Shown: positions 13,804 to 59,055 of the stretch, piece after piece | Numbering within the stretch: the first letter of the stretch is position 1 | How the letters are laid out: each line of letters starts with the position of its first letter | Source of the DNA: an uncultured virus (IMG/VR IMGVR_UViG_3300000115_000010) | Lineage: Duplodnaviria; Heunggongvirae; Uroviricota; Caudoviricetes | Reading direction: 5' to 3' (one strand) | IMG/VR virus record: IMGVR_UViG_3300000115_000010 | Location: 1-64,000 of that record | DNA length: 64,000 bases | Position numbers and translations under genes: made by a program | The notes under the pieces: generated by a model | Seen by the model: only the letters and a program-made list of their open reading frames with translations | Told to the model about the DNA's origin: nothing | Databases searched by the model: none

Positions 13804-13877
13804 CCTATGTCCAATAGTACTCATGAGAGGACTTATGCTGTACCCACAGCGTAGCGACTAGAACTCGCATAGGACTT
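13804..13877 (+). ncRNA. Putative structured cis-regulatory leader RNA (multi-stem junction)
   Basis: GC-richer intergenic region between late promoter TAAATA (13798) and AAGGAG SD, with helices GTCC/GGAC, TATGCTGT/ACAGCGTA, GCGA/TCGC and CCTAT/ATAGG. Confidence 0.55.
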
Positions 13878-13896
13878 CTTTTTAAGGAGAAAACAA

Positions 13897-14289
13897 ATGG
13901 GAAGACCACTACAGAAGAAGAATTTCGGTCCGCGAGCAGACGCTGCGGAAGCAGATGGCGCAGGCCAATGGGCACCAGCCGCATACACTGACTCACTATA
14001 TGGCGATGCCCATATAGTCAATCAAAAAGGTGCAAAGCGTTTTACAGTAGCAACTACTGGTCAACCAAACCAAGTATGTACACTAGTAGCAAGAATACCA
14101 AATGCGACTGGCGAAGTATCTATTAAAGTTAGAGATAGTGCTACACAAACTTACTTTGTAAGTAAGATTTCAGGTAGAACTTGCACACTTGTAGCAGATA
14201 CAGGAACACAGTTTTCAGATGGACAAAAAGTGCCTTGGAACCGTACCGGCGCTGTGGCCAACAAATCAGTTGTTATAGCTTTAGCATAA
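13897..14289 (+). CDS. Probable virion structural protein (MGRPL.KK.FG N-terminus)
   Basis: Late promoter, strong SD, beta-rich small-residue composition. Confidence 0.65.
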   Translation: MGRPLQKKNFGPRADAAEADGAGQWAPAAYTDSLYGDAHIVNQKGAKRFTVATTGQPNQVCTLVARIPNATGEVSIKVRDSATQTYFVSKISGRTCTLVADTGTQFSDGQKVPWNRTGAVANKSVVIALA

Positions 14290-44481: not shown

Positions 44482-45481
44482 AAAGTTAGGTCTAACCCAT
44501 TGGGATAATAAAACAGCGGGCGGGTATACACTATTTGCACCACAAACAGGAGGCGGACGTATACCACTCATTGACGATAGCGGTGAAGTAGTACACGAAT
44601 GGAACATGCCTGTTAGACCAGGCAGAGATGCAGTACTATTAGAAAACGGTAACTTGGGTTATAACGGAAGTCATAACACCAGTGTTGACCTTTATCCACC
44701 TTGGGATATTTGGCATGGTGGTCACTTTATGGAAGCTACAAAAGATAGTGAAATAGTTTGGGAATATGAAGATCCTTATGCACACCACGATGCACAATGG
44801 CTAGATGGCGGATTGTTATATGTTGCTGCCGCTGAATATAAAGACGGACGATTCAGTGACATTGTGCGTATGGTAAACCGTAAAGGTGATGTTGTATGGG
44901 AATGGTGTGCATGGGAACATATTACAGAAGAAGAGTTTCCAGTACACGAAGGTATGCCCGACAATCATTGGCCCATGATTAACGGAGTATGTCTATCTGG
45001 TCATACTATCTATTTAAGTTTGCGTAACACAAGTGGCATTATTGGAGTAGACAGAGCTACAAAAGAAGTTGTATGGAAAAAGCAGTGGCCCGATGTAGCA
45101 CAACAACATTGTCCTGTTGTTACCACAGCCGGTACAATGATTGCATTTTGTAATGGAAATATTAGGCCACCCGGGTTACATCACAGTAGGATTGTAGAAT
45201 TTGATTTAGCAACTAAAGAACAAATATGGAGTTATGTGGATGATATGCCTCCTAGTTTCTTTAGTCCTTATATGGGCAGTGTACAACGTTTATGGAATGG
45301 CAACACATTTATTTGTGAAAGTGCCTTTGGTAGATTGTTTGAAGTTACACCAGAAGGAGAAACAGTATGGGAATATGTTATCCCATGGTTTGAAGAATAC
45401 CCTGCACCACTAAACGAATTTATTACAGGAGCTCAAAACAGTTGCTTCAAAGCACATAGGTACAAAACATGGGAAATTTAG
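44462..45481 (+). CDS. Arylsulfotransferase (ASST-like beta-propeller), no signal peptide
   Basis: GGAGG SD with GTG 44462; G.V.H.W, HHD, G.VVWEW, QH, GSVQRL.NGNT.ICE...GRLFEVT..GE.VWEY. Confidence 0.75.
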   Translation: MTTIARRKLGLTHWDNKTAGGYTLFAPQTGGGRIPLIDDSGEVVHEWNMPVRPGRDAVLLENGNLGYNGSHNTSVDLYPPWDIWHGGHFMEATKDSEIVWEYEDPYAHHDAQWLDGGLLYVAAAEYKDGRFSDIVRMVNRKGDVVWEWCAWEHITEEEFPVHEGMPDNHWPMINGVCLSGHTIYLSLRNTSGIIGVDRATKEVVWKKQWPDVAQQHCPVVTTAGTMIAFCNGNIRPPGLHHSRIVEFDLATKEQIWSYVDDMPPSFFSPYMGSVQRLWNGNTFICESAFGRLFEVTPEGETVWEYVIPWFEEYPAPLNEFITGAQNSCFKAHRYKTWEI

Positions 45482-46674
45482 TAGTAGTAGGAACACAATG
45501 GGGCGATGAGGGTAAAGGCAAAGTAGTTGATCTACTAGCAGAACACGCTGATATTATTGTACGTTTCCAAGGCGGACACAATGCAGGACACACATTAGTA
45601 ATAGAAGATAAAGTTTTTAAACTTAGTTTACTGCCCAGCGGTATAGTAAGACAAGACAAAGTTTCAGTTATTGGTAACGGTGTTGTATTGAATCCTTGGA
45701 AACTATTAGAAGAGATTGAACTAGTACAGTCACAAGGCGTAAATATTGATCCTAGTAGATTAATGATTGCAGAAAACACTCCGCTAATTTTACCCTATCA
45801 CCAAGCATTAGATCAGTCAAGAGAAGAAGTAACTGATAAAAAAATCGGTACTACTGGCAGAGGCATCGGGCCTGCATACGAAGATAAAGCAGGAAGACGT
45901 GCAATTAAAGTAGGAGATCTTAGAGATGATGAACTACTCAAACATAGACTAGCAATAGCCGCAGAGTATCACAACTTTGACCAACAACAGTTGTTTAATC
46001 AGCTAGCACATATCAAAGAACATGTATTACAATATGTAAATGATGTACCACTTTATCTAAATCAAAAGACTGACTTAGGATTTAATATATTATTCGAAGG
46101 CGCACAAGGAAGCATGCTAGATGTAGACTTTGGCACTTATCCTTATGTAACAAGTTCAAACACACTAGCAGGCATGGCTAGTATAGGATCAGGTGTACCA
46201 CATAATAAAATACCAAATGTAATTGGTATAACAAAAGCATACACAACTAGAGTAGGTGAAGGTCCTATGACTACTGAACTGTTTGATGAAGTTGGAGAGC
46301 ATCTAGCAAATGTTGGTAAGGAAAAAGGCACAGTAACAGGCAGAGACAGAAGATGCGGCTGGTTTGACGCACCACAGGTTCGTAAGACTTGTATGTTAAA
46401 TGGTGTTACTGGCATAGCATTAATGAAAATAGACGTACTCGATAAACTCGAGACTATTAAGATTTGTACTGACGTACACAACGGAATACCAGTGTATGAA
46501 GAGCTACCTGGTTGGTGTACTAGTACAATAGGTATAACTGATTATTCAGATTTACCAAGACTTGCTCAAGAGTATATTAACCGTATTGAGCAATTAACAC
46601 AAACCGAAGTAGTTTTGATATCAACTGGACCAGAAAGAGATCAAACTATTTTATTACAAGATTCTTTCTTTTAG
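45469..46674 (+). CDS. purA: Adenylosuccinate synthetase
   Basis: QWGDEGKGK, GGHNAGHT, GTTGRGIGPAY, FEGAQG, GTYPYVTSS and TGR.RRCGW. Confidence 0.93.
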   Translation: MGNLVVVGTQWGDEGKGKVVDLLAEHADIIVRFQGGHNAGHTLVIEDKVFKLSLLPSGIVRQDKVSVIGNGVVLNPWKLLEEIELVQSQGVNIDPSRLMIAENTPLILPYHQALDQSREEVTDKKIGTTGRGIGPAYEDKAGRRAIKVGDLRDDELLKHRLAIAAEYHNFDQQQLFNQLAHIKEHVLQYVNDVPLYLNQKTDLGFNILFEGAQGSMLDVDFGTYPYVTSSNTLAGMASIGSGVPHNKIPNVIGITKAYTTRVGEGPMTTELFDEVGEHLANVGKEKGTVTGRDRRCGWFDAPQVRKTCMLNGVTGIALMKIDVLDKLETIKICTDVHNGIPVYEELPGWCTSTIGITDYSDLPRLAQEYINRIEQLTQTEVVLISTGPERDQTILLQDSFF

Positions 46675-46708
46675 AGAAAGAAATAACACTAACAGGGAGA
46701 AATATATT

Positions 46709-47329
46709 ATGTTAGGATTTTTTAAAGATATTGACAGAAGCATGTTGCTAAAACTAGTAGCACTACATGTAATTGTTATCGTAGTAAGTAACGCACTAGT
46801 GAGTATTCCAGTAGAAATTTTTGGAATTAAACTTACCTGGGCTGCATTTACATTTCCGTTGGTTGTGCTAGCAACTGACTTAACAGTACGAATGTTAGGT
46901 AAAAACATTGCACGTTCAACAATTGCGGCAGCTTATCCGTTGGCAATTATTGGATCAATTTTAGTTGTAATGGCGGAGGGTGCGCCAAGTAGTGTAGCAA
47001 TGCGTATTGGTTTAGCCAGTGCAACAGCGTATGCAGTTGGCACAATGTTGGATGTATATGTATTTCAATACCTACGTGAAAACTTTTTGAAGCATTGGTG
47101 GATTGCGCCAGCGGTATCAACTGTGGCAGCAAACATTATTGACACATACACATTCTTTTGGGTTGCGTTCAACAACAGTGCAGACGAATATATGGCTGCA
47201 AACTGGGTAGAGATCGCAGGATCACAAGTTGTGATTAAGATTGCAGTAGGACTTATTATCTTCCTACCAGCATACGGTGTGCTATTACGTTACTTAAATG
47301 GTAAACTTTCAGAAGAAGACGCCGAATAA
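46709..47329 (+). CDS. yhhQ: VUT-family queuosine-precursor (preQ0/preQ1) transporter
   Basis: SN.LV, TW..F.FP...LATDLTVR..G...AR, R...AS..AY..G..LD..VF, WW.AP..ST. Confidence 0.88.
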   Translation: MLGFFKDIDRSMLLKLVALHVIVIVVSNALVSIPVEIFGIKLTWAAFTFPLVVLATDLTVRMLGKNIARSTIAAAYPLAIIGSILVVMAEGAPSSVAMRIGLASATAYAVGTMLDVYVFQYLRENFLKHWWIAPAVSTVAANIIDTYTFFWVAFNNSADEYMAANWVEIAGSQVVIKIAVGLIIFLPAYGVLLRYLNGKLSEEDAE

Positions 47330-47340
47330 TACAAAATTAA

Positions 47341-47370
47341 AAACGGTGGGGATCTCCCCCACCGTTTAAT
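47341..47370 (+). terminator. Intrinsic terminator, possibly bidirectional
   Basis: AAACGGTGGGG-ATCTC-CCCCACCGTTT. Confidence 0.75.
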
Positions 47371-47384
47371 ATAAGGATAATATA

Positions 47385-48104
47385 ATGAAAATTAAATATG
47401 AAGACCATGATATACTTTATCCATTTGGTGAATATATTTATAGATCAAAAGTAGACGCTGATGGTCTTAAATTTATGCAAGACTTAGCTGAATCCTCAAG
47501 GGGAGGCGACGATGCTAGTAAATCTTTAGTTGGAAATATAAAAGAACAACGACATGGCATGATTAAAAATCAACAAGATGTAAATAACTTTGATAAAATT
47601 TTTCGTCCACATTTAAAAAACTATATGGATCAAATTAACAGAACGGCTAATTTTGTATTAGAAGAACCTGCTGAACGTCATAGTCATGAACAAGAAAATA
47701 CATCATTTTGGAGAATTGTCCAAGGTGATTATGAAAAACTTAGTTATTCATTAAACCAAGGACCTTGGTTTAATTATATGAAAAAATATGAATTTAATCC
47801 ATTACACAATCATCATGGAGAAATAAGTGCAATATGTATGGTAAGGGTACCTGAGGAAATTCAAAAAGAAGCAGAGAATGATGAAGATCCAAATTGGAGA
47901 GCTGGTGGAAAATTAGAGTTTGTTAGTGCAAACGGCCAATCATCACCACATAGGGTTGTTTCAAGAGAGGCTGATGTATATCTGTTTCCATCTATGCTGA
48001 GACATCAAGTTTATCCTTATAAAAGTGATGTTGAACGAATTACATGTAGTTGGAATTATTATAATATTAACTACCCATCCCTACAGGAATCATCAAATGA
48101 GTAA
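47385..48104 (+). CDS. 2OG-Fe(II) oxygenase
   Basis: W.N.....EFNPLHNH, LFPS.L.HQVYP and RIT.S.N. Confidence 0.8.
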   Translation: MKIKYEDHDILYPFGEYIYRSKVDADGLKFMQDLAESSRGGDDASKSLVGNIKEQRHGMIKNQQDVNNFDKIFRPHLKNYMDQINRTANFVLEEPAERHSHEQENTSFWRIVQGDYEKLSYSLNQGPWFNYMKKYEFNPLHNHHGEISAICMVRVPEEIQKEAENDEDPNWRAGGKLEFVSANGQSSPHRVVSREADVYLFPSMLRHQVYPYKSDVERITCSWNYYNINYPSLQESSNE

Positions 48105-48285
48105 TGAAATACAAGCTAGAATGTTAGAGCTATGTGAGCCAATTGAACGACAAATTATGATGTGCGATAACAGAGAAGATATCTTAATGATGGCATGCGT
48201 TATGCTAGATAAGGTTAAAGTTATGCTTGACAGTCAAATTGGTGTTAAAGGAAGACGTGAAATTATAGATGGTGCAAATAAGTAA
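48097..48285 (+). CDS. Small hypothetical protein
   Basis: ATG 48097 after AGGA; helical. Confidence 0.55.
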   Translation: MSNEIQARMLELCEPIERQIMMCDNREDILMMACVMLDKVKVMLDSQIGVKGRREIIDGANK

Positions 48286-48978
48286 ATGTATTTTATCAGT
48301 GCGCCATTTGGCAATTATTTACAGTACACAAACTTTCTAAGTGGCAAACCAATAGTCAGTGTTACTGGAACATTTACGGTGAAGCCACGTCCTGGACTAG
48401 CAAAACAAATTATAAAAACACTTAGGTATACTAGAACAGGCTGGCGCAACAAACTAGGTTTGCGTAACCCAGGAATATTTAAGGGGTTGGACAACACTGC
48501 ACCACACAATGTAATGAGTATTGCTAGTTTGGAACCAAATGATTGGCGTATACTATATGAAATAGTGCCCAAGCATCAGAATGTAGAACTTAACATAAGT
48601 TGCCCAAATGTAGATGAACATCCAGACTTAACTAAAGCATTTGCAAAAGATCAACGCTTCTGGTGCATTGTAAAAGTACCACCAACTATAACAAACAAAC
48701 AGATTGACAAAATAGTTAAACTAGGCTATAATCAAATACATGCAAGTAATACTGTTCCAACACAAAAAGGTGGACTTAGTGGTGATGTAATTGTACCACA
48801 CACTTTGAGAATACTAGAATACATAAAAAGTACACACCCTCATGTTACGGTTATTGCAGGTGGCGGAGTAAAAAATAAAGCTAGTGTTGATAGATATATT
48901 AACGCTGGTGCAGATCATATTAGTATAGGCAGTGTATGTTTTACTCCTTGGCGGATTAAAGGAATTATAAATGATTAA
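48286..48978 (+). CDS. Short dihydroorotate dehydrogenase-like flavoprotein
   Basis: N..GL.NPG, ELNISCPN, VK, SNT, GGLSG and IAGGGV. Confidence 0.8.
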   Translation: MYFISAPFGNYLQYTNFLSGKPIVSVTGTFTVKPRPGLAKQIIKTLRYTRTGWRNKLGLRNPGIFKGLDNTAPHNVMSIASLEPNDWRILYEIVPKHQNVELNISCPNVDEHPDLTKAFAKDQRFWCIVKVPPTITNKQIDKIVKLGYNQIHASNTVPTQKGGLSGDVIVPHTLRILEYIKSTHPHVTVIAGGGVKNKASVDRYINAGADHISIGSVCFTPWRIKGIIND

Positions 48979-49531
48979 GAAACATTATTATAGCTGGACT
49001 GACATTGAACGTATGTGTGTAAGCATTGTTAATCAAATGTATGCTGACAACTGGCGTCCTGATTACATTGTAGGACTTACACGCGGCGGCAATGTACCTG
49101 CTACTATTATTAGTAATATGACTGGCATACGTTGTGAAGCACTTAAAGTAAGTTTGCGTGACGATGAAGTAGGTCCCGAAAGTAATCTTTGGATGTCAGA
49201 AGATGCATTTGGTTATAACGATTCTGAAAAAACTGGAATCACTGGCGCACGTTGGGATATTAAACTTCGTAAGAATATTCTTATTGTAGATGATATCAAT
49301 GATACAGGTGCAACATTCAATTGGATTATAAAAGATTGGCAAGCAAGCTGTTTTCCTGGAGAAGATAATGGTTGGAATAGTGTATGGAACAATAATGTTC
49401 GATTTGCCACATTAACAGACAATTTGGCTAGTGAATTTACAGAGCATTGTGCTTACACATGTCACGAAATTAATAAAGCAGAACAAGATGTTTGGCTAGT
49501 TTATCCTTGGGAAAACGTAGGAGAATATTAA
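48971..49531 (+). CDS. Type I phosphoribosyltransferase (xanthine/guanine PRT-like)
   Basis: GLTRGG, ILIVDDINDTGAT and WLVYPWE. Confidence 0.88.
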   Translation: MIKKHYYSWTDIERMCVSIVNQMYADNWRPDYIVGLTRGGNVPATIISNMTGIRCEALKVSLRDDEVGPESNLWMSEDAFGYNDSEKTGITGARWDIKLRKNILIVDDINDTGATFNWIIKDWQASCFPGEDNGWNSVWNNNVRFATLTDNLASEFTEHCAYTCHEINKAEQDVWLVYPWENVGEY

Positions 49532-50332
49532 ATGAGCAAATTTTTATATAGAGTTGATGGCGGACGATATGGCGGAGAATTAGCAATTGGTAAAGTAACA
49601 GCAGAATTTGTACGCTATTGGCAAGACAAAGACCAAGATGATCTAGTATCACACATTGTTGGATTGGATTGGGACGATAGTGAAGATGTTGATACTAATA
49701 GTCCAGATCCATATGAAGATATGGATTACTGGAACAACTGGTACGAATGTGACGAGTATGAACATCAAAATGGTTACTATGCTGACGGTACATTTAGTGT
49801 CCATGATGTTTCAGGCAATGACCCAGAAAGTGAAGAAGCACAGGGATGGGACGAAGATGCAGTTGAGGTAGATCCACGATATTTAATCAGCAGAGAATGT
49901 TATGCAAATAAAGAAGAGCCTGAAGACTTGGAAGGTTATACTCCTGTATTGTGTTTTCATAGTGGTGAGAAAGGCGGCTTTGGCCAATGGTTTATTGAAA
50001 CAGACGAACCGTTTGATCCTAAAAAACTAGCATACACACAAGTAGAAACAGATTTATGTGAACTAGTAGATGGCATGTACTATGATAAACAACATCTGGA
50101 AACTGTCTATGATTACATGGACTCAACTGGCAAAGGCTACTATGCATATGTAGGCTGGCTTAAAGATGAATGGCACGACACACCAGATGGTATAACTGAA
50201 GAACACTGGGAAGATGTTTGGACAGATTATGATGCTGAAATGGAAGAACTTAAACAACAAGAACGTAAAGAATACGAACAAGCAAGAGCACAAAAGATTG
50301 CTGACAATCCTGGATGGGAACCTGGACAATGA
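49532..50332 (+). CDS. Acidic hypothetical protein
   Basis: 266-aa ORF with G..GGE and S.EKG.F segments. Confidence 0.7.
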   Translation: MSKFLYRVDGGRYGGELAIGKVTAEFVRYWQDKDQDDLVSHIVGLDWDDSEDVDTNSPDPYEDMDYWNNWYECDEYEHQNGYYADGTFSVHDVSGNDPESEEAQGWDEDAVEVDPRYLISRECYANKEEPEDLEGYTPVLCFHSGEKGGFGQWFIETDEPFDPKKLAYTQVETDLCELVDGMYYDKQHLETVYDYMDSTGKGYYAYVGWLKDEWHDTPDGITEEHWEDVWTDYDAEMEELKQQERKEYEQARAQKIADNPGWEPGQ

Positions 50333-50446
50333 TAACAGAAACAATTATAAACAACAGTGGTATTATCATAGGTAATTTACTGTTCTGGCCTATCTATATA
50401 TGGGTATGTACTATACCATATCGTATGTTACAAATGGGTATAGACA

Positions 50447-50632
50447 ATGCATAAACAAACAGGCACAAACAGTTGGACAATCGAAGTCCAAGAAAACGGA
50501 AAAACAAAAGAGCTATTCATTGAGTTTCCGCCGGATGCACTTAGTCAAGTTGGATGGGATGTAGGTGATACATTGATTTGGGAAGAATTAGATCATGGTG
50601 GCTGGAGTATAAAAAAATGCGAGTCAGAATAG
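50447..50632 (+). CDS. AbrB/MazE-like small DNA-binding protein
   Basis: LFIEFP.D.L.QVGW..GD.L.W pattern. Confidence 0.6.
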   Translation: MHKQTGTNSWTIEVQENGKTKELFIEFPPDALSQVGWDVGDTLIWEELDHGGWSIKKCESE

Positions 50633-50979
50633 GACCGTACAGAAAGAATCGTGCCACCAGAGTTGAAATAGAACCGCACGACACATGGAGTATGGATCAT
50701 ACACTTGCTATGATTATTCATCCTATGCTAGTACAACTAAAAGCAACAGCACATGGGTATCCTAGCGGTCTTACTGAAGAACGTTGGAACGAAATACTAG
50801 ATGAAATGATCTGGGCATTTGGTCACAAGTCAAAAGAAATAGATGCTGGCGACATGTGTGCTGATAAATGTTCAAACTTTGGTGATCCAGTATGCAAGGC
50901 TTGCATCAACGAAACACAAGAACGCCTTACAAATGCATTTATACTGTTTGGCAAATACTACGAAAACTTATGGGACTAA
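50617..50979 (+). CDS. Conserved phage hypothetical protein
   Basis: DTWSMDHTLA.II.P.L...W..ILDEMIWAF...LFGKYY.NLWD. Confidence 0.7.
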   Translation: MRVRIGPYRKNRATRVEIEPHDTWSMDHTLAMIIHPMLVQLKATAHGYPSGLTEERWNEILDEMIWAFGHKSKEIDAGDMCADKCSNFGDPVCKACINETQERLTNAFILFGKYYENLWD

Positions 50980-50989
50980 TAAAAGTAGT

Positions 50990-51018
50990 TTGACAGACTA
51001 ATAAAAAAGTAATATAAT
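50990..51018 (+). promoter_or_regulatory. Consensus sigma70 promoter upstream of queE
   Basis: TTGACA-17 bp-TATAAT. Confidence 0.8.
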
Positions 51019-51048
51019 ATTAGAAAATACAATCTTATAGGAAAATTT

Positions 51049-51945
51049 ATGAAGTTAAGATATAGCGAAGCATTCTACAGTGTACAAGGCGAAGGCAAGT
51101 TTGTAGGAGTACCTAGTGTATTCCTGCGTACATTTGGTTGTAACTTTCGTTGCATGAACTTTGGACTTGATAGAAGCGAGCCAATGCGTGACGTAAAACA
51201 AAAACAAGGTGTAATACATAACGAAGAAGTACAAGGTCTATTAGACAATAAAGTACATGAAACTACAGAAGTATTTACAGACTTGCCCATTATACACACA
51301 GGCTGTGATACATATGCAAGTATCTATCCAGAGTTTAAACACTTTAACAAGCAAGCTACAGTTGACGAAGTTGTAGAGCATTTAATTAGTTTACTGCCAG
51401 AAGGCAAGTGGACTTGTGATAACGGTCAAGACATACATTTGATAATGACCGGAGGTGAACCGTTGTTGGCGTGGCAACGACTGTACATAGAATTATTTGA
51501 ACATCCACGTATGCAGGATCTAAAAAATGTTACATTTGAAACAAATACTACACAATTTCTCAAAGACGATCTCTTTGACTATCTCAACAACAACGACAGA
51601 ATTACTGTCACATGGTCATGTTCCCCGAAACTTAGTGTTAGTGGAGAACCTTGGGATACTGCTATTAAACCTAAAGTTGCTCATGAGTATAGTCTTGTGG
51701 ACGGCAGTGACTTGTATCTCAAGTTTGTTGTCGCTGATCGTATGGACATTGAAGAAGCTGAGCGAGCTGTTGAAGAATATCGTGCTGAAGGTTTGGAATG
51801 CCCTGTGTACCTTATGCCATTGGGTGGTAGGTCTGAAGAGTACAATCTTAACGTCCAAGAAGTTGCAAACATCTGCATGGAAAAAGGGTGGCGTTTTACC
51901 CCAAGACTTCACATTTCACTCTTCGGAAATGCGTGGGGCACTTAA
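51049..51945 (+). CDS. queE: 7-carboxy-7-deazaguanine synthase (radical SAM)
   Basis: E.FYSVQGEG, FLR..GCN..C (long insert) CDT, TGGEPL, ETN, SPKL and RLH. Confidence 0.9.
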   Translation: MKLRYSEAFYSVQGEGKFVGVPSVFLRTFGCNFRCMNFGLDRSEPMRDVKQKQGVIHNEEVQGLLDNKVHETTEVFTDLPIIHTGCDTYASIYPEFKHFNKQATVDEVVEHLISLLPEGKWTCDNGQDIHLIMTGGEPLLAWQRLYIELFEHPRMQDLKNVTFETNTTQFLKDDLFDYLNNNDRITVTWSCSPKLSVSGEPWDTAIKPKVAHEYSLVDGSDLYLKFVVADRMDIEEAERAVEEYRAEGLECPVYLMPLGGRSEEYNLNVQEVANICMEKGWRFTPRLHISLFGNAWGT

Positions 51946-52023
51946 TAAAAAATATAAAAATAAGCAACACGAACGAGCTATGAAGGCACCCATTAATGAA
52001 GATAAAATTAGAAAGGCTGGATT

Positions 52024-52371
52024 ATGAATTTACATAGTATTACTAAAAAATATCTTTCTTCTTGGAATACAAGAGATAAATCTACGCTCCAAAGTATATT
52101 TGCAGAAGATATTACACTACAAGATTGGAATGTTAAAGTACATGGCAGAGAAAACGTAATTAATGCTAATGCTGATATTTGGGAAAATGTACCAGATATA
52201 CATGTATTGTTAATGCATATTGGTGTTTGTGAAAAACTAAAAAAATCATATGCAGAAATTACTGTTGTAAGTCAAAAAGAAAATTTACACATAAAGGTAA
52301 TTGATGTTATTTCTTTTGACAAAAACAATAAAATTATCAAGGTAGATGCATTCCACCAGGAGTCAACATAA
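52024..52371 (+). CDS. SnoaL/NTF2-like protein
   Basis: Y...WN..D...L...FAEDI.L.DW...G; VIDVI.FD...KI. Confidence 0.75.
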   Translation: MNLHSITKKYLSSWNTRDKSTLQSIFAEDITLQDWNVKVHGRENVINANADIWENVPDIHVLLMHIGVCEKLKKSYAEITVVSQKENLHIKVIDVISFDKNNKIIKVDAFHQEST

Positions 52372-53463
52372 ATGAACAACTATATCTTTACAAGCGAAAG
52401 CGTTAGTGATGGACACCCAGATAAAATAGCAGATCAAATCAGTGATGCACTAGTAGATGCCGGACTAACCAATGGCGACGAAACAACTCGTGTAGCTATT
52501 GAAACACTTGTAACCACTAATCATGTAACGTTAGCGGGCGAAGTAAAAAACTTTAACGTAAGCAAAGACAAGGTAAAACAAATCGTTCGTGACAAAGTTC
52601 GTGAGATTGGGTATGAACAAGAAGGATTTCATTGGGATAACTTGCGTATCTATAATGAGATTCACTCACAAAGTGGAGACATTGGCTTAGGCACAGATGA
52701 CTTTGGTGCAGGTGATCAAGGACTTATGTTTGGATATGCATGTAATCATACAGACAGTATGATGCCAGCACCTATCCATTACAGTCACGAGATTCTAAAG
52801 AACTTGAAAAGCAAACGTGGTGCTATACTAGGTCCAGATGCCAAGAGTCAAGTAAGCGTAGAGTACTATGGTGCCAGACGTGATGGTGTAATCAAGCGTG
52901 TGGACCAAGTTGTGATAAGTACACAACATACACAAGGCAATGTGGAAGAAGCAAGGCATTTGTGTAAACTTTCAGCAATGGAAGAACTTGGAGATTTAGT
53001 AGATGACAACACTATATGGCATCTTAATCCTACAGGTAATTTTGTTATTGGTGGTCCTGACGGTGATGCTGGTGTCACAGGAAGAAAGATTATCGTGGAC
53101 ACTTATGGCGGTTTCGCTCCTCATGGTGGCGGTGCTTTTAGTGGTAAGGATCCTACTAAAGTCGACCGCTCTGCAGCCTATGTGGCTCGTTGGCTTGCTA
53201 AAAATGTTGTAGCAGATAATATGGCGGACTGGTGTAATATCCAATTAAGTTATGCTATTGGTGTTAAAAAACCCACCAGCATTTATGTTGATAGTAACGG
53301 ACACAATGCTAGTATTGCCAAGTTTATCGAACGTGAAATTGATCTAACACCCAAAGGAATTATTGATAGATTTGATTTGTTTAACTTTACTAAGTACAGT
53401 GAAAATTGTGTATATGGACACTTTGGAAATAAAGATGTACCTTGGGAGAAAATTGGGTGGTAA
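52372..53463 (+). CDS. metK: S-adenosylmethionine synthetase
   Basis: FTSESV..GHPDK, GAGDQG, PDAKSQV, GGGAFSGKDPTKVDRS. Confidence 0.97.
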   Translation: MNNYIFTSESVSDGHPDKIADQISDALVDAGLTNGDETTRVAIETLVTTNHVTLAGEVKNFNVSKDKVKQIVRDKVREIGYEQEGFHWDNLRIYNEIHSQSGDIGLGTDDFGAGDQGLMFGYACNHTDSMMPAPIHYSHEILKNLKSKRGAILGPDAKSQVSVEYYGARRDGVIKRVDQVVISTQHTQGNVEEARHLCKLSAMEELGDLVDDNTIWHLNPTGNFVIGGPDGDAGVTGRKIIVDTYGGFAPHGGGAFSGKDPTKVDRSAAYVARWLAKNVVADNMADWCNIQLSYAIGVKKPTSIYVDSNGHNASIAKFIEREIDLTPKGIIDRFDLFNFTKYSENCVYGHFGNKDVPWEKIGW

Positions 53464-53768
53464 AGAAAATAATAACTGAAGAAATAGTCAGAGAAGCATT
53501 ACTAAACGTATATGATCCAGAAGTTAGTCTTAGTGTACAAGAGCTAGGATTAATTTATGAAGTAAAAATTAACGGACAAGAAGTTTACATTAAGCATACA
53601 TTGACAAGTATGATGTGTCCGTTTGCAGATGAAATTTGTCAAGGTATTGAAGAAGCAGTTGGTGAAATTTCAGGTGTTGAATCAGTTAAAAGAGAACTAG
53701 TATTTGAACCACCATTTAGTATAGAAATGGTACCAGAAGATACACGAATGATGATGGGATGGTATTAA
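53457..53768 (+). CDS. DUF59/SufT Fe-S cluster assembly protein
   Basis: VYDPE...ELGLIY, TLTS..CP and LVFEPP. Confidence 0.85.
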   Translation: MVKKIITEEIVREALLNVYDPEVSLSVQELGLIYEVKINGQEVYIKHTLTSMMCPFADEICQGIEEAVGEISGVESVKRELVFEPPFSIEMVPEDTRMMMGWY

Positions 53769-54169
53769 TGCCGTATTATACAACTGCAAACTTATTTGAA
53801 GTAGGTGACTTTATTAGTCACGCAGGAAACAAACTAGCATGGAAAATTGAGTGCGATGCTATACGCCCAGAGTGGTGGGACGGACTAGCACGTATGATCA
53901 TGGACTATCAAACAGAGCCTTTTAGTAAAGTAGTTGGTATTCCACGTGGCGGGTTGCCACTACAGTATGCAATGGAAAAATATGTAACACCTGGTGATCA
54001 TCCTTGGATGGTTGTAGATGATGTGTACACTACAGGCACAAGTTTTAGGGAGTTTTGCACAAGTAATCAAACAATGTTTGCATACAAGTGGTGTATTTTT
54101 GCACGTAAACCTATCGAAGGCGATGAGCCACATGACGTGAGAGCGTTGTTTACTATGCCCACTAAATAG
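53768..54169 (+). CDS. Short orotate-PRT-like phosphoribosyltransferase
   Basis: F.SH.G....WKIECD, GIPRGG and VVDDVYTTGTS. Confidence 0.78.
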   Translation: MPYYTTANLFEVGDFISHAGNKLAWKIECDAIRPEWWDGLARMIMDYQTEPFSKVVGIPRGGLPLQYAMEKYVTPGDHPWMVVDDVYTTGTSFREFCTSNQTMFAYKWCIFARKPIEGDEPHDVRALFTMPTK

Positions 54170-57416: not shown

Positions 57417-58289
57417 ATGACGCAACTCATAAACCCACGAAAATTTACACAAACAGTTGGCCTTTTAAGGTCATTTTTTTTGGACAAAGGATTCTTGGAA
57501 GTCCACACCCAAAACAGACTAAGCATACTTGCCGCATGTGAAGATCCATTCAATGTAGCAACGTACAATTACGCAGGCAACACTTGGCCACTACCCCAAA
57601 CAGGCCAGATGTGGTTAGAACATGAATTATTAAGTAGCCCCGATAGTAAGGGGTTTTTTTGTGTCTCCACTTCCTATAGACAAGAGCCAAATGCTATACC
57701 AGGCAGACACGATATTATCTTCCCAATGTTTGAATTTGAAATGCCAGGCAGTGTAGATGATCTCAAAGCAATGGAAATTGAACTGTGTGAATACTTAGGC
57801 TTTGATGCACTAACAGAAAAAACATACAGAGAATGGCAACAGCATTGGGGTGTAAGTGCAGACACCGAAATGGATGACAGTCACGAAAAAGCTATGGAAA
57901 TGAACTTTGGTAGTTGTTTGATTACTGACTTTCCAGAACTAACATCACCTTTCTGGAACATGGCACGTAATGATGATGGCGAAACTGCCAAGAAGATGGA
58001 TGTTATACTAGGTGGTATGGAAACTATAGGCTCAGCAGAACGTAGTTGTGATGTTGATATGATGCGTGATACATTCCATAGTATTGTAGACGGAGAGTAC
58101 GCAGAGTTGTTATTTAAACTATTCGGTAAAGAACGTGTAGAAGCAGAACTAGAAGAGTTCCTCAAGTTTGACTTCTTCCAAAGAGTAGGCGGCGGAATTG
58201 GTATTACACGTATGATACCTGCACTAGAAAAAATAAATGCACTGAGTGAGCCAATGGGTATGATTCAACCCATGCTTCGTTCAGCATAA
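57417..58289 (+). CDS. Class IIb aminoacyl-tRNA synthetase catalytic core (AsnRS-like) lacking the anticodon-binding domain
   Basis: Motif 1 RSFFLDKGFLEVHT starts at residue 18; LPQTGQMWLE; motif 2 SYRQE...RH...F.MFEFE; ETIGSAER; motif 3 GGGIGITR. Confidence 0.85.
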   Translation: MTQLINPRKFTQTVGLLRSFFLDKGFLEVHTQNRLSILAACEDPFNVATYNYAGNTWPLPQTGQMWLEHELLSSPDSKGFFCVSTSYRQEPNAIPGRHDIIFPMFEFEMPGSVDDLKAMEIELCEYLGFDALTEKTYREWQQHWGVSADTEMDDSHEKAMEMNFGSCLITDFPELTSPFWNMARNDDGETAKKMDVILGGMETIGSAERSCDVDMMRDTFHSIVDGEYAELLFKLFGKERVEAELEEFLKFDFFQRVGGGIGITRMIPALEKINALSEPMGMIQPMLRSA

Positions 58290-58296
58290 AGTTTAT

Positions 58297-58397
58297 TCCA
58301 GGGTGGAGAAATTGGTAGACTCGCACGACTGTTTATCGTGTGATAGATGTTCCGCAAAATATTTATCGTGTAGGTTCGAGTCCTACCCCTGGAGCCA
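58297..58397 (+). tRNA. tRNA-Asn(GUU), atypical: long variable arm, U37, encoded CCA
   Basis: Acceptor TCCAGGG/CCCTGGA plus G-CCA; D stem GAG/CTC with GG; anticodon stem CACGA/TCGTG with loop CT-GTT-TA; 29-nt variable region; T arm GTAGG-TTCGAGT-CCTAC. Confidence 0.88.
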
Positions 58398-58403
58398 ATA
58401 AAA

Positions 58404-58448
58404 TATGACCTACAGATCATAAAACTATAATATGGTCTATAGGTCATA
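58404..58448. terminator. Imperfect inverted repeat after the tRNA, overlapping a TAAATA motif
   Basis: TATGACCTACAGATCATA ... TATGGTCTATAGGTCATA. Confidence 0.5.
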
Positions 58449-58458
58449 AATATGTGTA

Positions 58459-59055
58459 ATGAATTACATTGAAAAATTAGAACAATCAGATATATTTCGT
58501 TATATAAAAGACAAAAAAGTACTAGAAATTGGTACTGCAGAAGGTTACTATTGGAATCTTTACAAAAAATATAATCCTTTAAATATAACCGGATTAGATC
58601 CAGATGATAGATGGAGTCTGACAGATGGTGTAAAAAGAGAGAATATAATAAAATACGGCTGGGAAAAATATTTGCCAGTAACTGGCTATGACGTTATTAT
58701 TGCATATGGTGTAATATACAAGTTAAGCAGTCCATTACATTTTTTAGAAACATTAGTCAGGTCTGAGCCACAAGTTATAATGATCGAACAAGTAGATCGT
58801 TGGGGCCAACCAGGTATTTCAAAATATCAGTCTATTAGAGATGGACGACGGGGAGATATTATCTATAGTGATAGGTATAATAGTAAAATTCATATGCATG
58901 CACCGGAAGATTTAATTGTAAAAGCAATGAATAATATGAATTATGAATTAGTTCAAAAAGAAGTTATCAGGGCAACTGATGATGATGAGTTTTGGATGAT
59001 TAGAGGCAAAAAAAGCACAAAACAATTTACATTTTTAAATAAAAATAATATATAA
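58459..59055 (+). CDS. Class I SAM-dependent methyltransferase
   Basis: KKVLEIGTAEG, TGLD and YDVII.YGV.Y.L.SP. Confidence 0.75.
   Translation: MNYIEKLEQSDIFRYIKDKKVLEIGTAEGYYWNLYKKYNPLNITGLDPDDRWSLTDGVKRENIIKYGWEKYLPVTGYDVIIAYGVIYKLSSPLHFLETLVRSEPQVIMIEQVDRWGQPGISKYQSIRDGRRGDIIYSDRYNSKIHMHAPEDLIVKAMNNMNYELVQKEVIRATDDDEFWMIRGKKSTKQFTFLNKNNI

Follow-up and report, generated by a model that had tools for sequence, protein, structure and literature searches.

A near-obligate pairing of an asparaginyl-tRNA synthetase-like catalytic core with a long-arm chimeric tRNA(GUU) in a lineage of marine, mostly cyanophage genomes

In a 64,000-nucleotide stretch of DNA from an uncultured virus of the Caudoviricetes (IMG/VR record IMGVR_UViG_3300000115_000010, positions 1 to 64,000; the whole stretch is hereafter called the window), a tRNA gene with the anticodon GUU and a long variable arm was found to lie directly downstream of a gene encoding an asparaginyl-tRNA synthetase (AsnRS)-like protein. 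Analyses of related loci showed that the gene and the tRNA form one conserved, near-obligate unit in a single lineage of marine genomes, most of them from T4-like cyanophages. The tRNA is a chimera in which the acceptor end and anticodon of a tRNA-Asn are carried on a Leu-type class II body. The reading that we favor, with a probability of about one half, is a dedicated enzyme-tRNA pair, in which the enzyme would act with asparagine on the 3' end of the tRNA independently of the anticodon. A preliminary description of the tRNA had missed this context, in which an AsnRS-like gene without an anticodon-binding domain ends 7 nt upstream. The parts of the unit in the window are listed below.

57417-58289 (+): partner gene encoding a 290-aa class IIb (Asp/Asn/Lys-type) synthetase core; the stop codon lies 7 nt before the tRNA
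58297-58397 (+): long-arm chimeric tRNA(GUU) with encoded CCA, supported by Rfam (46 bits), the family model R1 (111.3 bits), fold and covariation
58297-58303 / 58387-58393 (+): acceptor stem of 7 bp by tRNA parse, followed by U8 and G9
58306-58308 / 58320-58322 (+): D stem of 3 bp, with A13 and A22 unpaired; the whole arm, 58306-58322, is of Leu type
within 58306-58322 (+): D loop with A14 and A15, then G18 and G19, plus one extra nucleotide
58324-58328 / 58336-58340 (+): anticodon stem of 5 bp by tRNA parse
58329-58335 (+): anticodon loop CUGUUUA, with U33, the anticodon GUU at 58331-58333 and U37 at 58334
58341-58369 (+): variable region of 29 nt, with a 10-bp stem (58342-58351 / 58358-58367) and the loop CCGCAA
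58370-58386 (+): T arm with a T stem of 5 bp
58394 (+): discriminator G, followed by CCA at 58395-58397, by tRNA parse

The tRNA was detected by the Rfam model RF00005 with 46 bits (cut-off, 29; E value, 6e-9) when the 301 bases around it were scanned alone, and the alignment placed a 26-nt insertion in the variable region. It was the single match to this model in the whole 78,040-base record, whose estimated completeness is 22%. The gene at 58297-58397 was not reported in the Rfam scan of the whole window at gathering thresholds, and ARAGORN found no tRNA anywhere in the window. The minimum-energy structure computed by RNAfold was a five-arm cloverleaf (-32.3 kcal/mol; z, -2.6) in which the anticodon stem is lengthened by a G-U pair, and the variable arm folded in isolation gave the same 10-bp hairpin (z, -4.0). 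The hairpin is preceded by one unpaired base and followed by two, as in tRNA-Leu, and a variable region of 29 nt is longer than the usual arms of tRNA-Leu, tRNA-Ser and tRNA-Tyr. The score, the cloverleaf and the 10-bp arm bear out the tRNA(GUU) with a long variable arm that had been proposed in the preliminary description, and the anticodon loop CU-GUU-UA with U37 was likewise read as described there.

Family-wide comparison was performed with 46 distinct tRNA sequences, which were obtained from the best 80 IMG/VR contigs, two distinct copies from the P-SSM phages and the window. Membership was scored with the covariance model R1 (members, at least 75 bits), on which the window tRNA reached 111.3 bits; a blastn search of the window tRNA against the annotated phage collection gave no match. 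In the alignment of the 46 sequences, standard pairs occupied 96.7% of 1287 cells, and the acceptor, D, anticodon and T stems were paired in 100% of cells. Changes on both sides were observed at 18 of the 30 pairs, including two of the three pairs of the D stem. None of 500 shuffled controls attained any of the observed pairing measures, and sliding the partners by 1-3 columns gave pairing of 39-61%. The basal pairs of the variable arm covary, as in one pair that is GC in 19, AU in 15 and CG in 7 sequences, and the upper arm shows mostly A-U to G-U changes opposite a conserved 3' strand. Every variable region holds a single hairpin of 3-12 bp within 13-32 nt overall; 34 are long (28-32 nt) and 12 are short (13-17 nt), and a region of 38 nt was counted by hand in locus L087. 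By reading the sequences, GCAA was found in or at the loop of all 34 long arms, and a GNRA tetraloop caps seven of the 12 short ones. The preliminary description had named a lack of compensatory changes in the arm or stems as the mark of a pseudogene; with such changes at 18 of 30 pairs and the canonical stems fully paired, the pseudogene reading fails, and the window copy is, as far as comparative analysis can predict, a functional and structurally constrained tRNA.

The fixed positions of the family comprise U1-A72, G73, U8, G9, A14, A15, G18, G19 and A21 as well as U33-G34-U35-U36 and the U before the T stem (U48), each in 46 of 46 sequences. Most of the T arm, the elbow and the CCA are also invariant, and the acceptor pairs otherwise covary around the fixed U1-A72. 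The remaining positions of the anticodon loop are free to differing degrees: at position 37, U occurs in 34 sequences, A in 10 and C in the other 2, whereas position 32 is C in 42 and U in 4, and position 38 is A in 42 and C in 4. Position 37 differs even between near-identical backbones, with C37 in L070 and A37 in L074. The emphasis that had been laid on U37 holds for the window copy and was overstated for the family; since relatives carry A37 or C37, U37 does not define the family, and its hallmark is the absence of a purine requirement at position 37.

Two further features of these tRNA loci were observed. In one tRNA sub-lineage, consisting of L006 (2381-2480), L007-L009 and L012, the T stem has a single bulged nucleotide on its 5' side (GCAUGG / CCUGC), and this bulge is retained across five contigs with differing acceptor stems. 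A long inverted repeat (ATGACCTACAGATCAT ... ATGGTCTATAGGTCAT) is located at 58398-58455 of the window, directly 3' of the tRNA CCA, and is a candidate for a terminator or else a small repeat element; similar palindromic units were found 3' of the tRNA in L007 and, as two copies, in L012.

The partner protein matched the Pfam family PF00152 (4e-16) with residues 12-271, aligned to positions 27-293 of the 308-position catalytic profile, and it matched phrog_29758, a phage family of unknown function (4e-130). The AlphaFold model was a single domain (pLDDT, 94.5; pTM, 0.91), to which Foldseek placed the catalytic domains of AspRS, AsnRS and LysRS about equally near (TMq, 0.63-0.75; 16-19% identity). 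The N-terminal OB domain that binds the anticodon is missing, and the length of 276-290 aa (276 aa in typical relatives) is too short for it. Among 50 diverse members, most retain motif 2 (SYRxE...GRH...FEFE) as well as motif 3 (GGGIGxTR), and a few have lost the arginines; the enzyme looks catalytically intact. Searches of the family profile against solved structures returned AsnRS first (Brugia, 9.8e-15; human, 5e-14), followed by weaker matches to archaeal AspRS (9e-13) and archaeal asparagine synthetase A (1.3e-7). The pocket motif Q-T-G-Q-M-x-L-E aligns with Q-S-S-Q-L-Y-L-E of AsnRS, and AspRS has Q-S-P-Q-L-Y-K-Q at this place. In AspRS the lysine binds the side-chain carboxylate of aspartate, and in AsnRS the glutamate contacts the amide of asparagine. 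Because the motif ends in the AsnRS-like LE, the amino-acid pocket would be of Asn type if these residue roles hold. The charging with a non-cognate amino acid that had been suggested in the preliminary description is accordingly unlikely, given the AsnRS-type pocket motif in the adjoining enzyme. The protein scored far below the cut-off of the asnS equivalog TIGR00457 (33 vs 342.6 bits) and is not a member of the asparagine synthetase A family NF005055 (19.7 vs 389 bits).

The enzyme is widespread. It is encoded in at least 597 IMG/VR viral contigs, at least 8000 proteins match its profile at E ≤ 0.001, and a profile search at the same threshold gave 681 clusters among 1.84 billion representatives; most of the 150 clusters listed are stand-alone proteins of 270-300 aa. 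Homologues were found in nine annotated phage records, which include P-SSM7, P-SSM2 and P-SSM5 ('tRNA ligase') and three huge uncultured phage records. In P-SSM7, P-SSM2 and P-SSM5, a tRNA-Asn(GUU) of 85-88 nt with the loop CUGUUUA, U1-A72, G73 and a 5-bp arm is located directly 3' of the gene.

The linkage between gene and tRNA was analyzed from both sides. The enzyme-side set comprised 86 sources, including the best 80 of the IMG/VR contigs counted above. An R1 member was present in 80 of the 86 sources and L035 ends within its tRNA; L066 and L078 end inside the gene and are unassessable, so that the tRNA was recorded at 81 of 84 assessable loci. It was absent at L052 and at the two huge-phage loci L004 and L005, and no R1 member was found anywhere in the 735-kb and 484-kb records of these huge phages. 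For the tRNA side, the family consensus was used to build a DNA pattern limited to the D stem plus the anticodon arm, and this pattern matched at least 120 stretches. The test was performed on 80 listed viral loci (L166-L245), some contigs of which overlap the enzyme-side set, and the enzyme was found directly upstream on the same strand in 80 of 80. By direct reading, gene and tRNA are 7 nt apart in the window and 6 nt apart in L010. Negative gaps had suggested an overlap of the open reading frame (ORF) with the tRNA; this was an alignment artefact, as the ORF of L010 stops 6 nt before the tRNA. The protein of L006 is identical to the window enzyme, yet this locus has a different tRNA variant and no methyltransferase of the kind described below, pointing to recombination right at the edge of the unit.

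A maximum-likelihood tree was constructed from 143 distinct enzyme sequences by a quick method with a midpoint root; it has several long branches and does not show the direction of change. All 64 tRNA-bearing rows fell within one group of 70 (SH-aLRT, 90), the remaining six being the two unassessable contigs, L052 and a tRNA-less trio from metagenome-assembled genomes (MAGs; L090, L091 and L093). A separate clade of 66 rows, from Patescibacteria, Bacteroidota and a small number of other MAGs, was without the tRNA, and the Rickettsiales, other alphaproteobacterial rows and the two huge phages fell outside both groups. No paper was found that describes the long-arm architecture or the pairing of enzyme and tRNA, though the genes are annotated in three cultured phages; the available portions of the P-SSM2 genome paper (PMC1079782) and of PMC3152331, PMC11726456 and PMC12801897, supplements aside, mention neither the long arm nor the enzyme.

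The neighbors of the unit were compared at 160 loci. The next gene in the window is given below.

58459-59055 (+): 198-aa methyltransferase, weakly similar to the tRNA U34 enzyme CmoB (26 bits), between the tRNA and the exonuclease gene

This methyltransferase was considered as a third partner and rejected, since it was found at none of the 160 related loci, and for the same reason it looks like a recent insertion. The 308-aa ORF upstream of the unit was found at three of these loci, the exonuclease at nine and NeuB at one; no other neighbor is conserved with the unit.

In the dedicated pair that we favor, the enzyme would probably bind asparagine and form asparaginyl-AMP, and would then act on the 3' end of its partner tRNA, most likely by charging it. 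Recognition would proceed through the acceptor end together with the unusual body or the long arm, in place of the anticodon, and the outcome would be a private pool of Asn-tRNA(GUU). Such a pool probably means more than extra decoding capacity because the rule of a purine at position 37 with the t6A modification is relaxed, contig G002 has an ordinary tRNA-Asn as well and the bacterial relatives that lack the tRNA seem to serve metabolism. G002, in which an ordinary A37 tRNA-Asn lies near 101.3 kb and a long-arm U37 copy near 57.0 kb, is one of five long contigs examined for both kinds of tRNA, all five incomplete. The charged tRNA could be used for a special translation of AAY codons or for donation of activated asparagine to a metabolic reaction, and the function outside the ribosome suggested in the preliminary description is mildly favored.

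Several observations weigh against this reading. In the structural comparison of the modeled protein, Foldseek does not separate Asn from Asp or Lys, and the presumed meaning of the pocket residues is taken from AspRS and AsnRS structures; charging of the tRNA by the enzyme is a prediction from the genes. The invariant GUU would need a ribosome or an anticodon-reading host enzyme, since the partner enzyme has no anticodon domain. The unit is also not universal among the relatives of the enzyme. In contigs representing one genome per species, 428 stretches encode relatives, and the best 80 were examined. The family tRNA is present in six of them, all marine MAG contigs with 61-78% identity that seem to be phage DNA included in the bins. 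The remaining bacterial-MAG loci, encoding relatives with 54-61% identity (best tblastn segment), carry no tRNA at the family-level R1 score (0 of 74). As these relatives and the two huge phages show, members of the enzyme family can do without the tRNA, and the reaction common to the family may be something other than tRNA charging. The long-arm gene is the sole tRNA-Asn of P-SSM2 and of P-SSM7, and the P-SSM7 copy is located about 860 nt downstream of decoder tRNAs for Ile, Arg and Leu, just past the ligase gene; this content and position fit plain decoding. Thirteen listed RNA-library runs hold part of the stretch and four were examined. In these four runs, contigs cover the enzyme ORF and none spans 58338-58600, and one contig of 1061 nt begins 64 nt before the start codon and reaches into the tRNA of an L006-type variant. 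Such contigs are assembled, may reflect carry-over of DNA and do not give transcription, mature ends or level.

The absence of the tRNA from bacterial relatives leads to an alternative in which the tRNA is a captive substrate. Host AsnRS, or a non-discriminating AspRS together with GatCAB, would charge it, and the phage enzyme would draw the activated Asn (or Asp) for a non-ribosomal reaction of pyrimidine type, the odd body and position 37 excluding the tRNA from translation. We consider this possible, although on the unlikely side. Somewhat more doubtful is its fuller form, in which the tRNA is a captive carrier and not a translation adaptor, host enzymes load it with asparagine made on the tRNA by way of GUU, G73 and U1-A72, and the AsnRS-like enzyme then uses the tRNA-bound activated asparagine in an undescribed pyrimidine-type nucleotide route, which the tRNA-less bacterial relatives would run from free substrate in genomes without aspartate carbamoyltransferase.

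The gene context of some tRNA-less relatives speaks for this alternative. Pfam annotation of 14 long bacterial-MAG loci showed the enzyme in an apparent operon with genes for a dihydroorotate (DHO)-dehydrogenase-like protein (DHOdh-like), a phosphoribosyltransferase (PRT) and an orotidine monophosphate (OMP) decarboxylase in L133 and L102, and pyrimidine-type genes within two genes of it in L101 and L134. A gene for a Dus-type flavoenzyme is located directly upstream in L098 (5182-6189) and L128 (5839-6816), which come from Saccharibacteria and other Patescibacteria MAGs; a Dus-family gene at this place could be tRNA-related or a DHO-dehydrogenase-like oxidoreductase. The next two downstream genes in L147 encode a Lyase_1-family protein and an amidohydrolase, and the remaining seven loci showed nothing related nearby. 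When all 80 loci were searched by tblastn, pyrD/E/F-like genes were found within 7 kb in 15 of the 74 tRNA-less loci and Dus-like genes in a further 14; neither was within reach in 45, which speaks against the alternative. Aspartate carbamoyltransferase was above the cut-off in none of five genomes with pyrimidine-type genes near the enzyme, MAGs that may be incomplete and that include two of 4.4 and 6.7 Mb, compared with 14 of 14 controls, and a canonical AsnRS was present in two of the same five.

Similar genes occur in the window itself.

48286-48978 (+): short, divergent DHOdh-like gene (tblastn with the L133 operon protein, E 8e-37; Pfam DHO_dh, 2.7e-12)
48971-49531 (+): second PRTase gene, overlapping the end of the DHOdh-like gene
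53759-54169 (+): small PRT-like ORF (tblastn with the L102 operon PRT, E 5e-16, 43% identity)

Both the DHOdh-like gene and the small PRT-like ORF may be distant partners of the enzyme-tRNA unit. The DHOdh-like gene is far under the PyrD cut-off (67 vs 269 bits). The PRT-like ORF gave no Pfam or NCBIfam match and contains VVDDVYTTGTS, which we take to be a motif of the phosphoribosyl pyrophosphate (PRPP) type. A DHOdh-like gene also adjoins the enzyme-tRNA unit in L087 and L096. A search of the complete genomes of P-SSM2 and P-SSM7, both of which have the pair, gave no DHOdh-like protein; this search had no positive control, and its outcome counts against the captive tRNA.

The invariant elements of the tRNA bear on the same question. 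U1-A72 promotes amidation by bacterial GatCAB and an extra D-loop nucleotide (U20A) blocks it, according to the available portion of PMC1635274, so that this evidence cuts both ways: fixed GUU, G73 and U1-A72 are what host AsnRS or AspRS and GatCAB would read, and the Leu-type D loop of the family has one extra nucleotide. The relaxed position 37 and the coexistence with an ordinary tRNA-Asn in G002 are consistent with a tRNA kept out of translation. On the other side, no established chemistry joins an AsnRS-type pocket, which activates the alpha-carboxyl group, to dihydroorotate, and a lack of AsnRS and of free asparagine in the hosts is presumed.

Two candidates from the nucleotide genes were rejected. 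The DHOdh-like gene is not an obligatory phage partner (0 of 5 records, in a search without a positive control), and the 266-aa ORF at 49532-50332 showed no similarity to support a divergent OMP decarboxylase. These genes belong to a run of nucleotide and cofactor genes at 45469-54169 (+), which encodes adenylosuccinate synthetase, a Vut_1 transporter (putative vitamin uptake), a 2-oxoglutarate (2OG)-Fe(II) oxygenase, the overlapping DHOdh-like and phosphoribosyltransferase genes, the 266-aa ORF, a QueE-like radical S-adenosylmethionine (SAM) enzyme, SAM synthetase, an Fe-S assembly protein and the PRT-like ORF.

Less likely again is a plain codon supplement, that is, a host-charged tRNA-Asn that would read AAC and AAU in an AT-rich phage, co-transcribed with an unrelated enzyme and with its long arm and U37 merely tolerated. 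The tRNA contents of P-SSM2 and P-SSM7 described above agree with it, and the anticodon, U33, T loop, G18-G19 and CCA are intact. The t6A modification at position 37 is needed for reading codons that start with A, with which a pyrimidine at this position in 36 of the 46 distinct tRNAs conflicts. A supplement would also leave unexplained that the tRNA is always accompanied by the enzyme on the tRNA side of the linkage test, that phage Syn9 has an ordinary tRNA-Asn and no enzyme, and that G002 keeps its ordinary A37 copy as well. Drift is no explanation for a Leu-type body that is held under strong covariation. In support of decoding, tRNA-Asn(GUU) is listed among the six commonest tRNAs of cyanomyoviruses in the available portion of PMC3152331 and in a table of PMC11726456.

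Evasion of host defence, in which the loop and body of the tRNA-Asn would escape an anticodon nuclease while the anticodon-blind synthetase still charges it, is improbable. Positions 32, 37 and 38 would then be diversifying and not relaxed, in agreement with the clustering of variation in the loop around a fixed anticodon, with C37 in L070 as opposed to A37 in L074, and with an enzyme that has no domain able to sense loop changes. Loop changes are known to let phage tRNAs escape anticodon nucleases; no nuclease targeting tRNA-Asn is known from picocyanobacteria, the tRNA-less relatives beside pyrimidine genes would be left unexplained, and the ordinary A37 tRNA-Asn of G002 would stay vulnerable. 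Finally, a decayed tRNA gene, or a mere signal for RNA processing or termination at the 3' end of the enzyme mRNA, could be invoked from the failure of ARAGORN, the 7-nt distance to the stop codon and the hairpin that follows, and can be dismissed in view of the fully paired canonical stems with their many compensatory changes and of the invariant elbow, T loop, anticodon and CCA, as a processing signal needs no conserved anticodon or discriminator.

Automated annotation will under-report this family because ARAGORN misses the window copy and mis-calls other members as 'Glu(ctc)', 'Asn(att)' or 'Asp(atc)' (L079:2336-2435, L084:2339-2440, L326:1498-1599 and L307:2516-2617). In the GenBank record of P-SSM2 (L002, NC_006883.2), the tRNA-Asn PSSM2_199 is placed at 164094-164179, within a CDS. 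The sole tRNA of this genome was found by Rfam and ARAGORN at 162083-162168, directly after the ligase gene and in agreement with the order of locus tags; the record misplaces its tRNA-Asn copy.

Other tRNAs of unusual size were also observed. The P-SSM7 tRNA-Leu(UAA) at L001:3871-3943 has 73 nt and no long arm, the reverse of the situation in the long-arm tRNA-Asn, which lies about 860 nt further downstream. Over-long tRNAs include an 85-nt tRNA(CCA) with a 12-nt variable region (L057:155-239) as well as 94-nt 'Ile(tat)' and about 90-nt 'Ser(act)' genes (L072:1407-1500; L304:1664-1757; L310:826-915). A freshwater-2 RNA motif (RF02980, 71.7 bits) is located at 13817-13899 (+) of the window and ends at an ATG.

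A self-contained charging system blind to the anticodon, if that is what the dedicated pair is, would amount to an orthogonal synthetase/tRNA pair of natural origin, and the class II body on an Asn acceptor end would represent a new mode of tRNA identity. Should the tRNA supply a metabolic enzyme instead, it would constitute a tRNA-dependent step in nucleotide metabolism and would explain an abundant gene of unknown function. The pair is testable now, as the cultured Prochlorococcus phages P-SSM2, P-SSM5 and P-SSM7 carry it.

The tRNA was compared with ordinary tRNA-Asn from three controls, namely Synechococcus phage Syn9, the huge phage LR756508 and contig G002. Both kinds share GUU, U33, the CUGUU core, U1-A72, G73 and the T-loop sequence. 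The ordinary genes have 72-76 nt, a 4-bp D stem, G15-C48, a variable loop of 4-5 nt and A37, whereas the family has a 3-bp D stem, a variable region of 13-32 nt and no purine rule at position 37. Ordinary tRNA-Asn genes also exist without the mini-enzyme, and they scored 35 and 49.4 bits on R1, below the 75 bits of members. With tRNA-Leu, a class II tRNA, the family shares the 3-bp D stem, the sequence and length of the D loop, A15-U48 and a hairpin variable arm. The D arm is identical to that of a genuine tRNA-Leu(UAG) at 17 of 21 positions (hand count on the alignment) with equal loop length, and A15 and U48 are present in all 46 members, confirming the Leu-like D arm with a 3-bp stem and an A15-U48 pair that had been described at the outset. 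The top non-member scorers on R1 were likewise tRNA-Leu genes (63.4, 61.5, 59.6, 57 and 50.9 bits). A73 is a Leu identity element; the family differs from tRNA-Leu in having G73 in its place, together with U1-A72, the Asn anticodon and an arm of up to 12 bp with a GCAA or GNRA cap. The anticodon-switched type II scaffold of the preliminary description was thus correct as to the long arm, the Leu-like body and the Asn anticodon; because the acceptor end is Asn-like, with U1-A72 and G73 invariant, the tRNA is not merely an anticodon-switched tRNA-Leu but the chimera named above.

On the enzyme side, the phage protein resembles class IIb AsnRS (2XTI/2XGT, 8TC7, 1X54 and 9SH8) in its catalytic fold (TMq up to 0.75), in having motifs 2 and 3, and in the Q..Q..LE pattern. 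The phage enzyme differs in its length of 276-290 aa, in the lack of the OB-fold anticodon domain, in an identity of 16-19% and in scoring below the asnS cut-off. The archaeal asparagine synthetase A or AsnRS-related protein (3P8T, 1NNH) is a stand-alone AsnRS-like core of equal size (294 aa) that acts independently of tRNA. The profile of the phage enzyme matched 3P8T more weakly than true AsnRS (34 vs 57 bits), and the archaeal protein, which was not among the Foldseek rows shown for the phage enzyme, has no associated tRNA, in contrast to the phage core and its long-arm partner.

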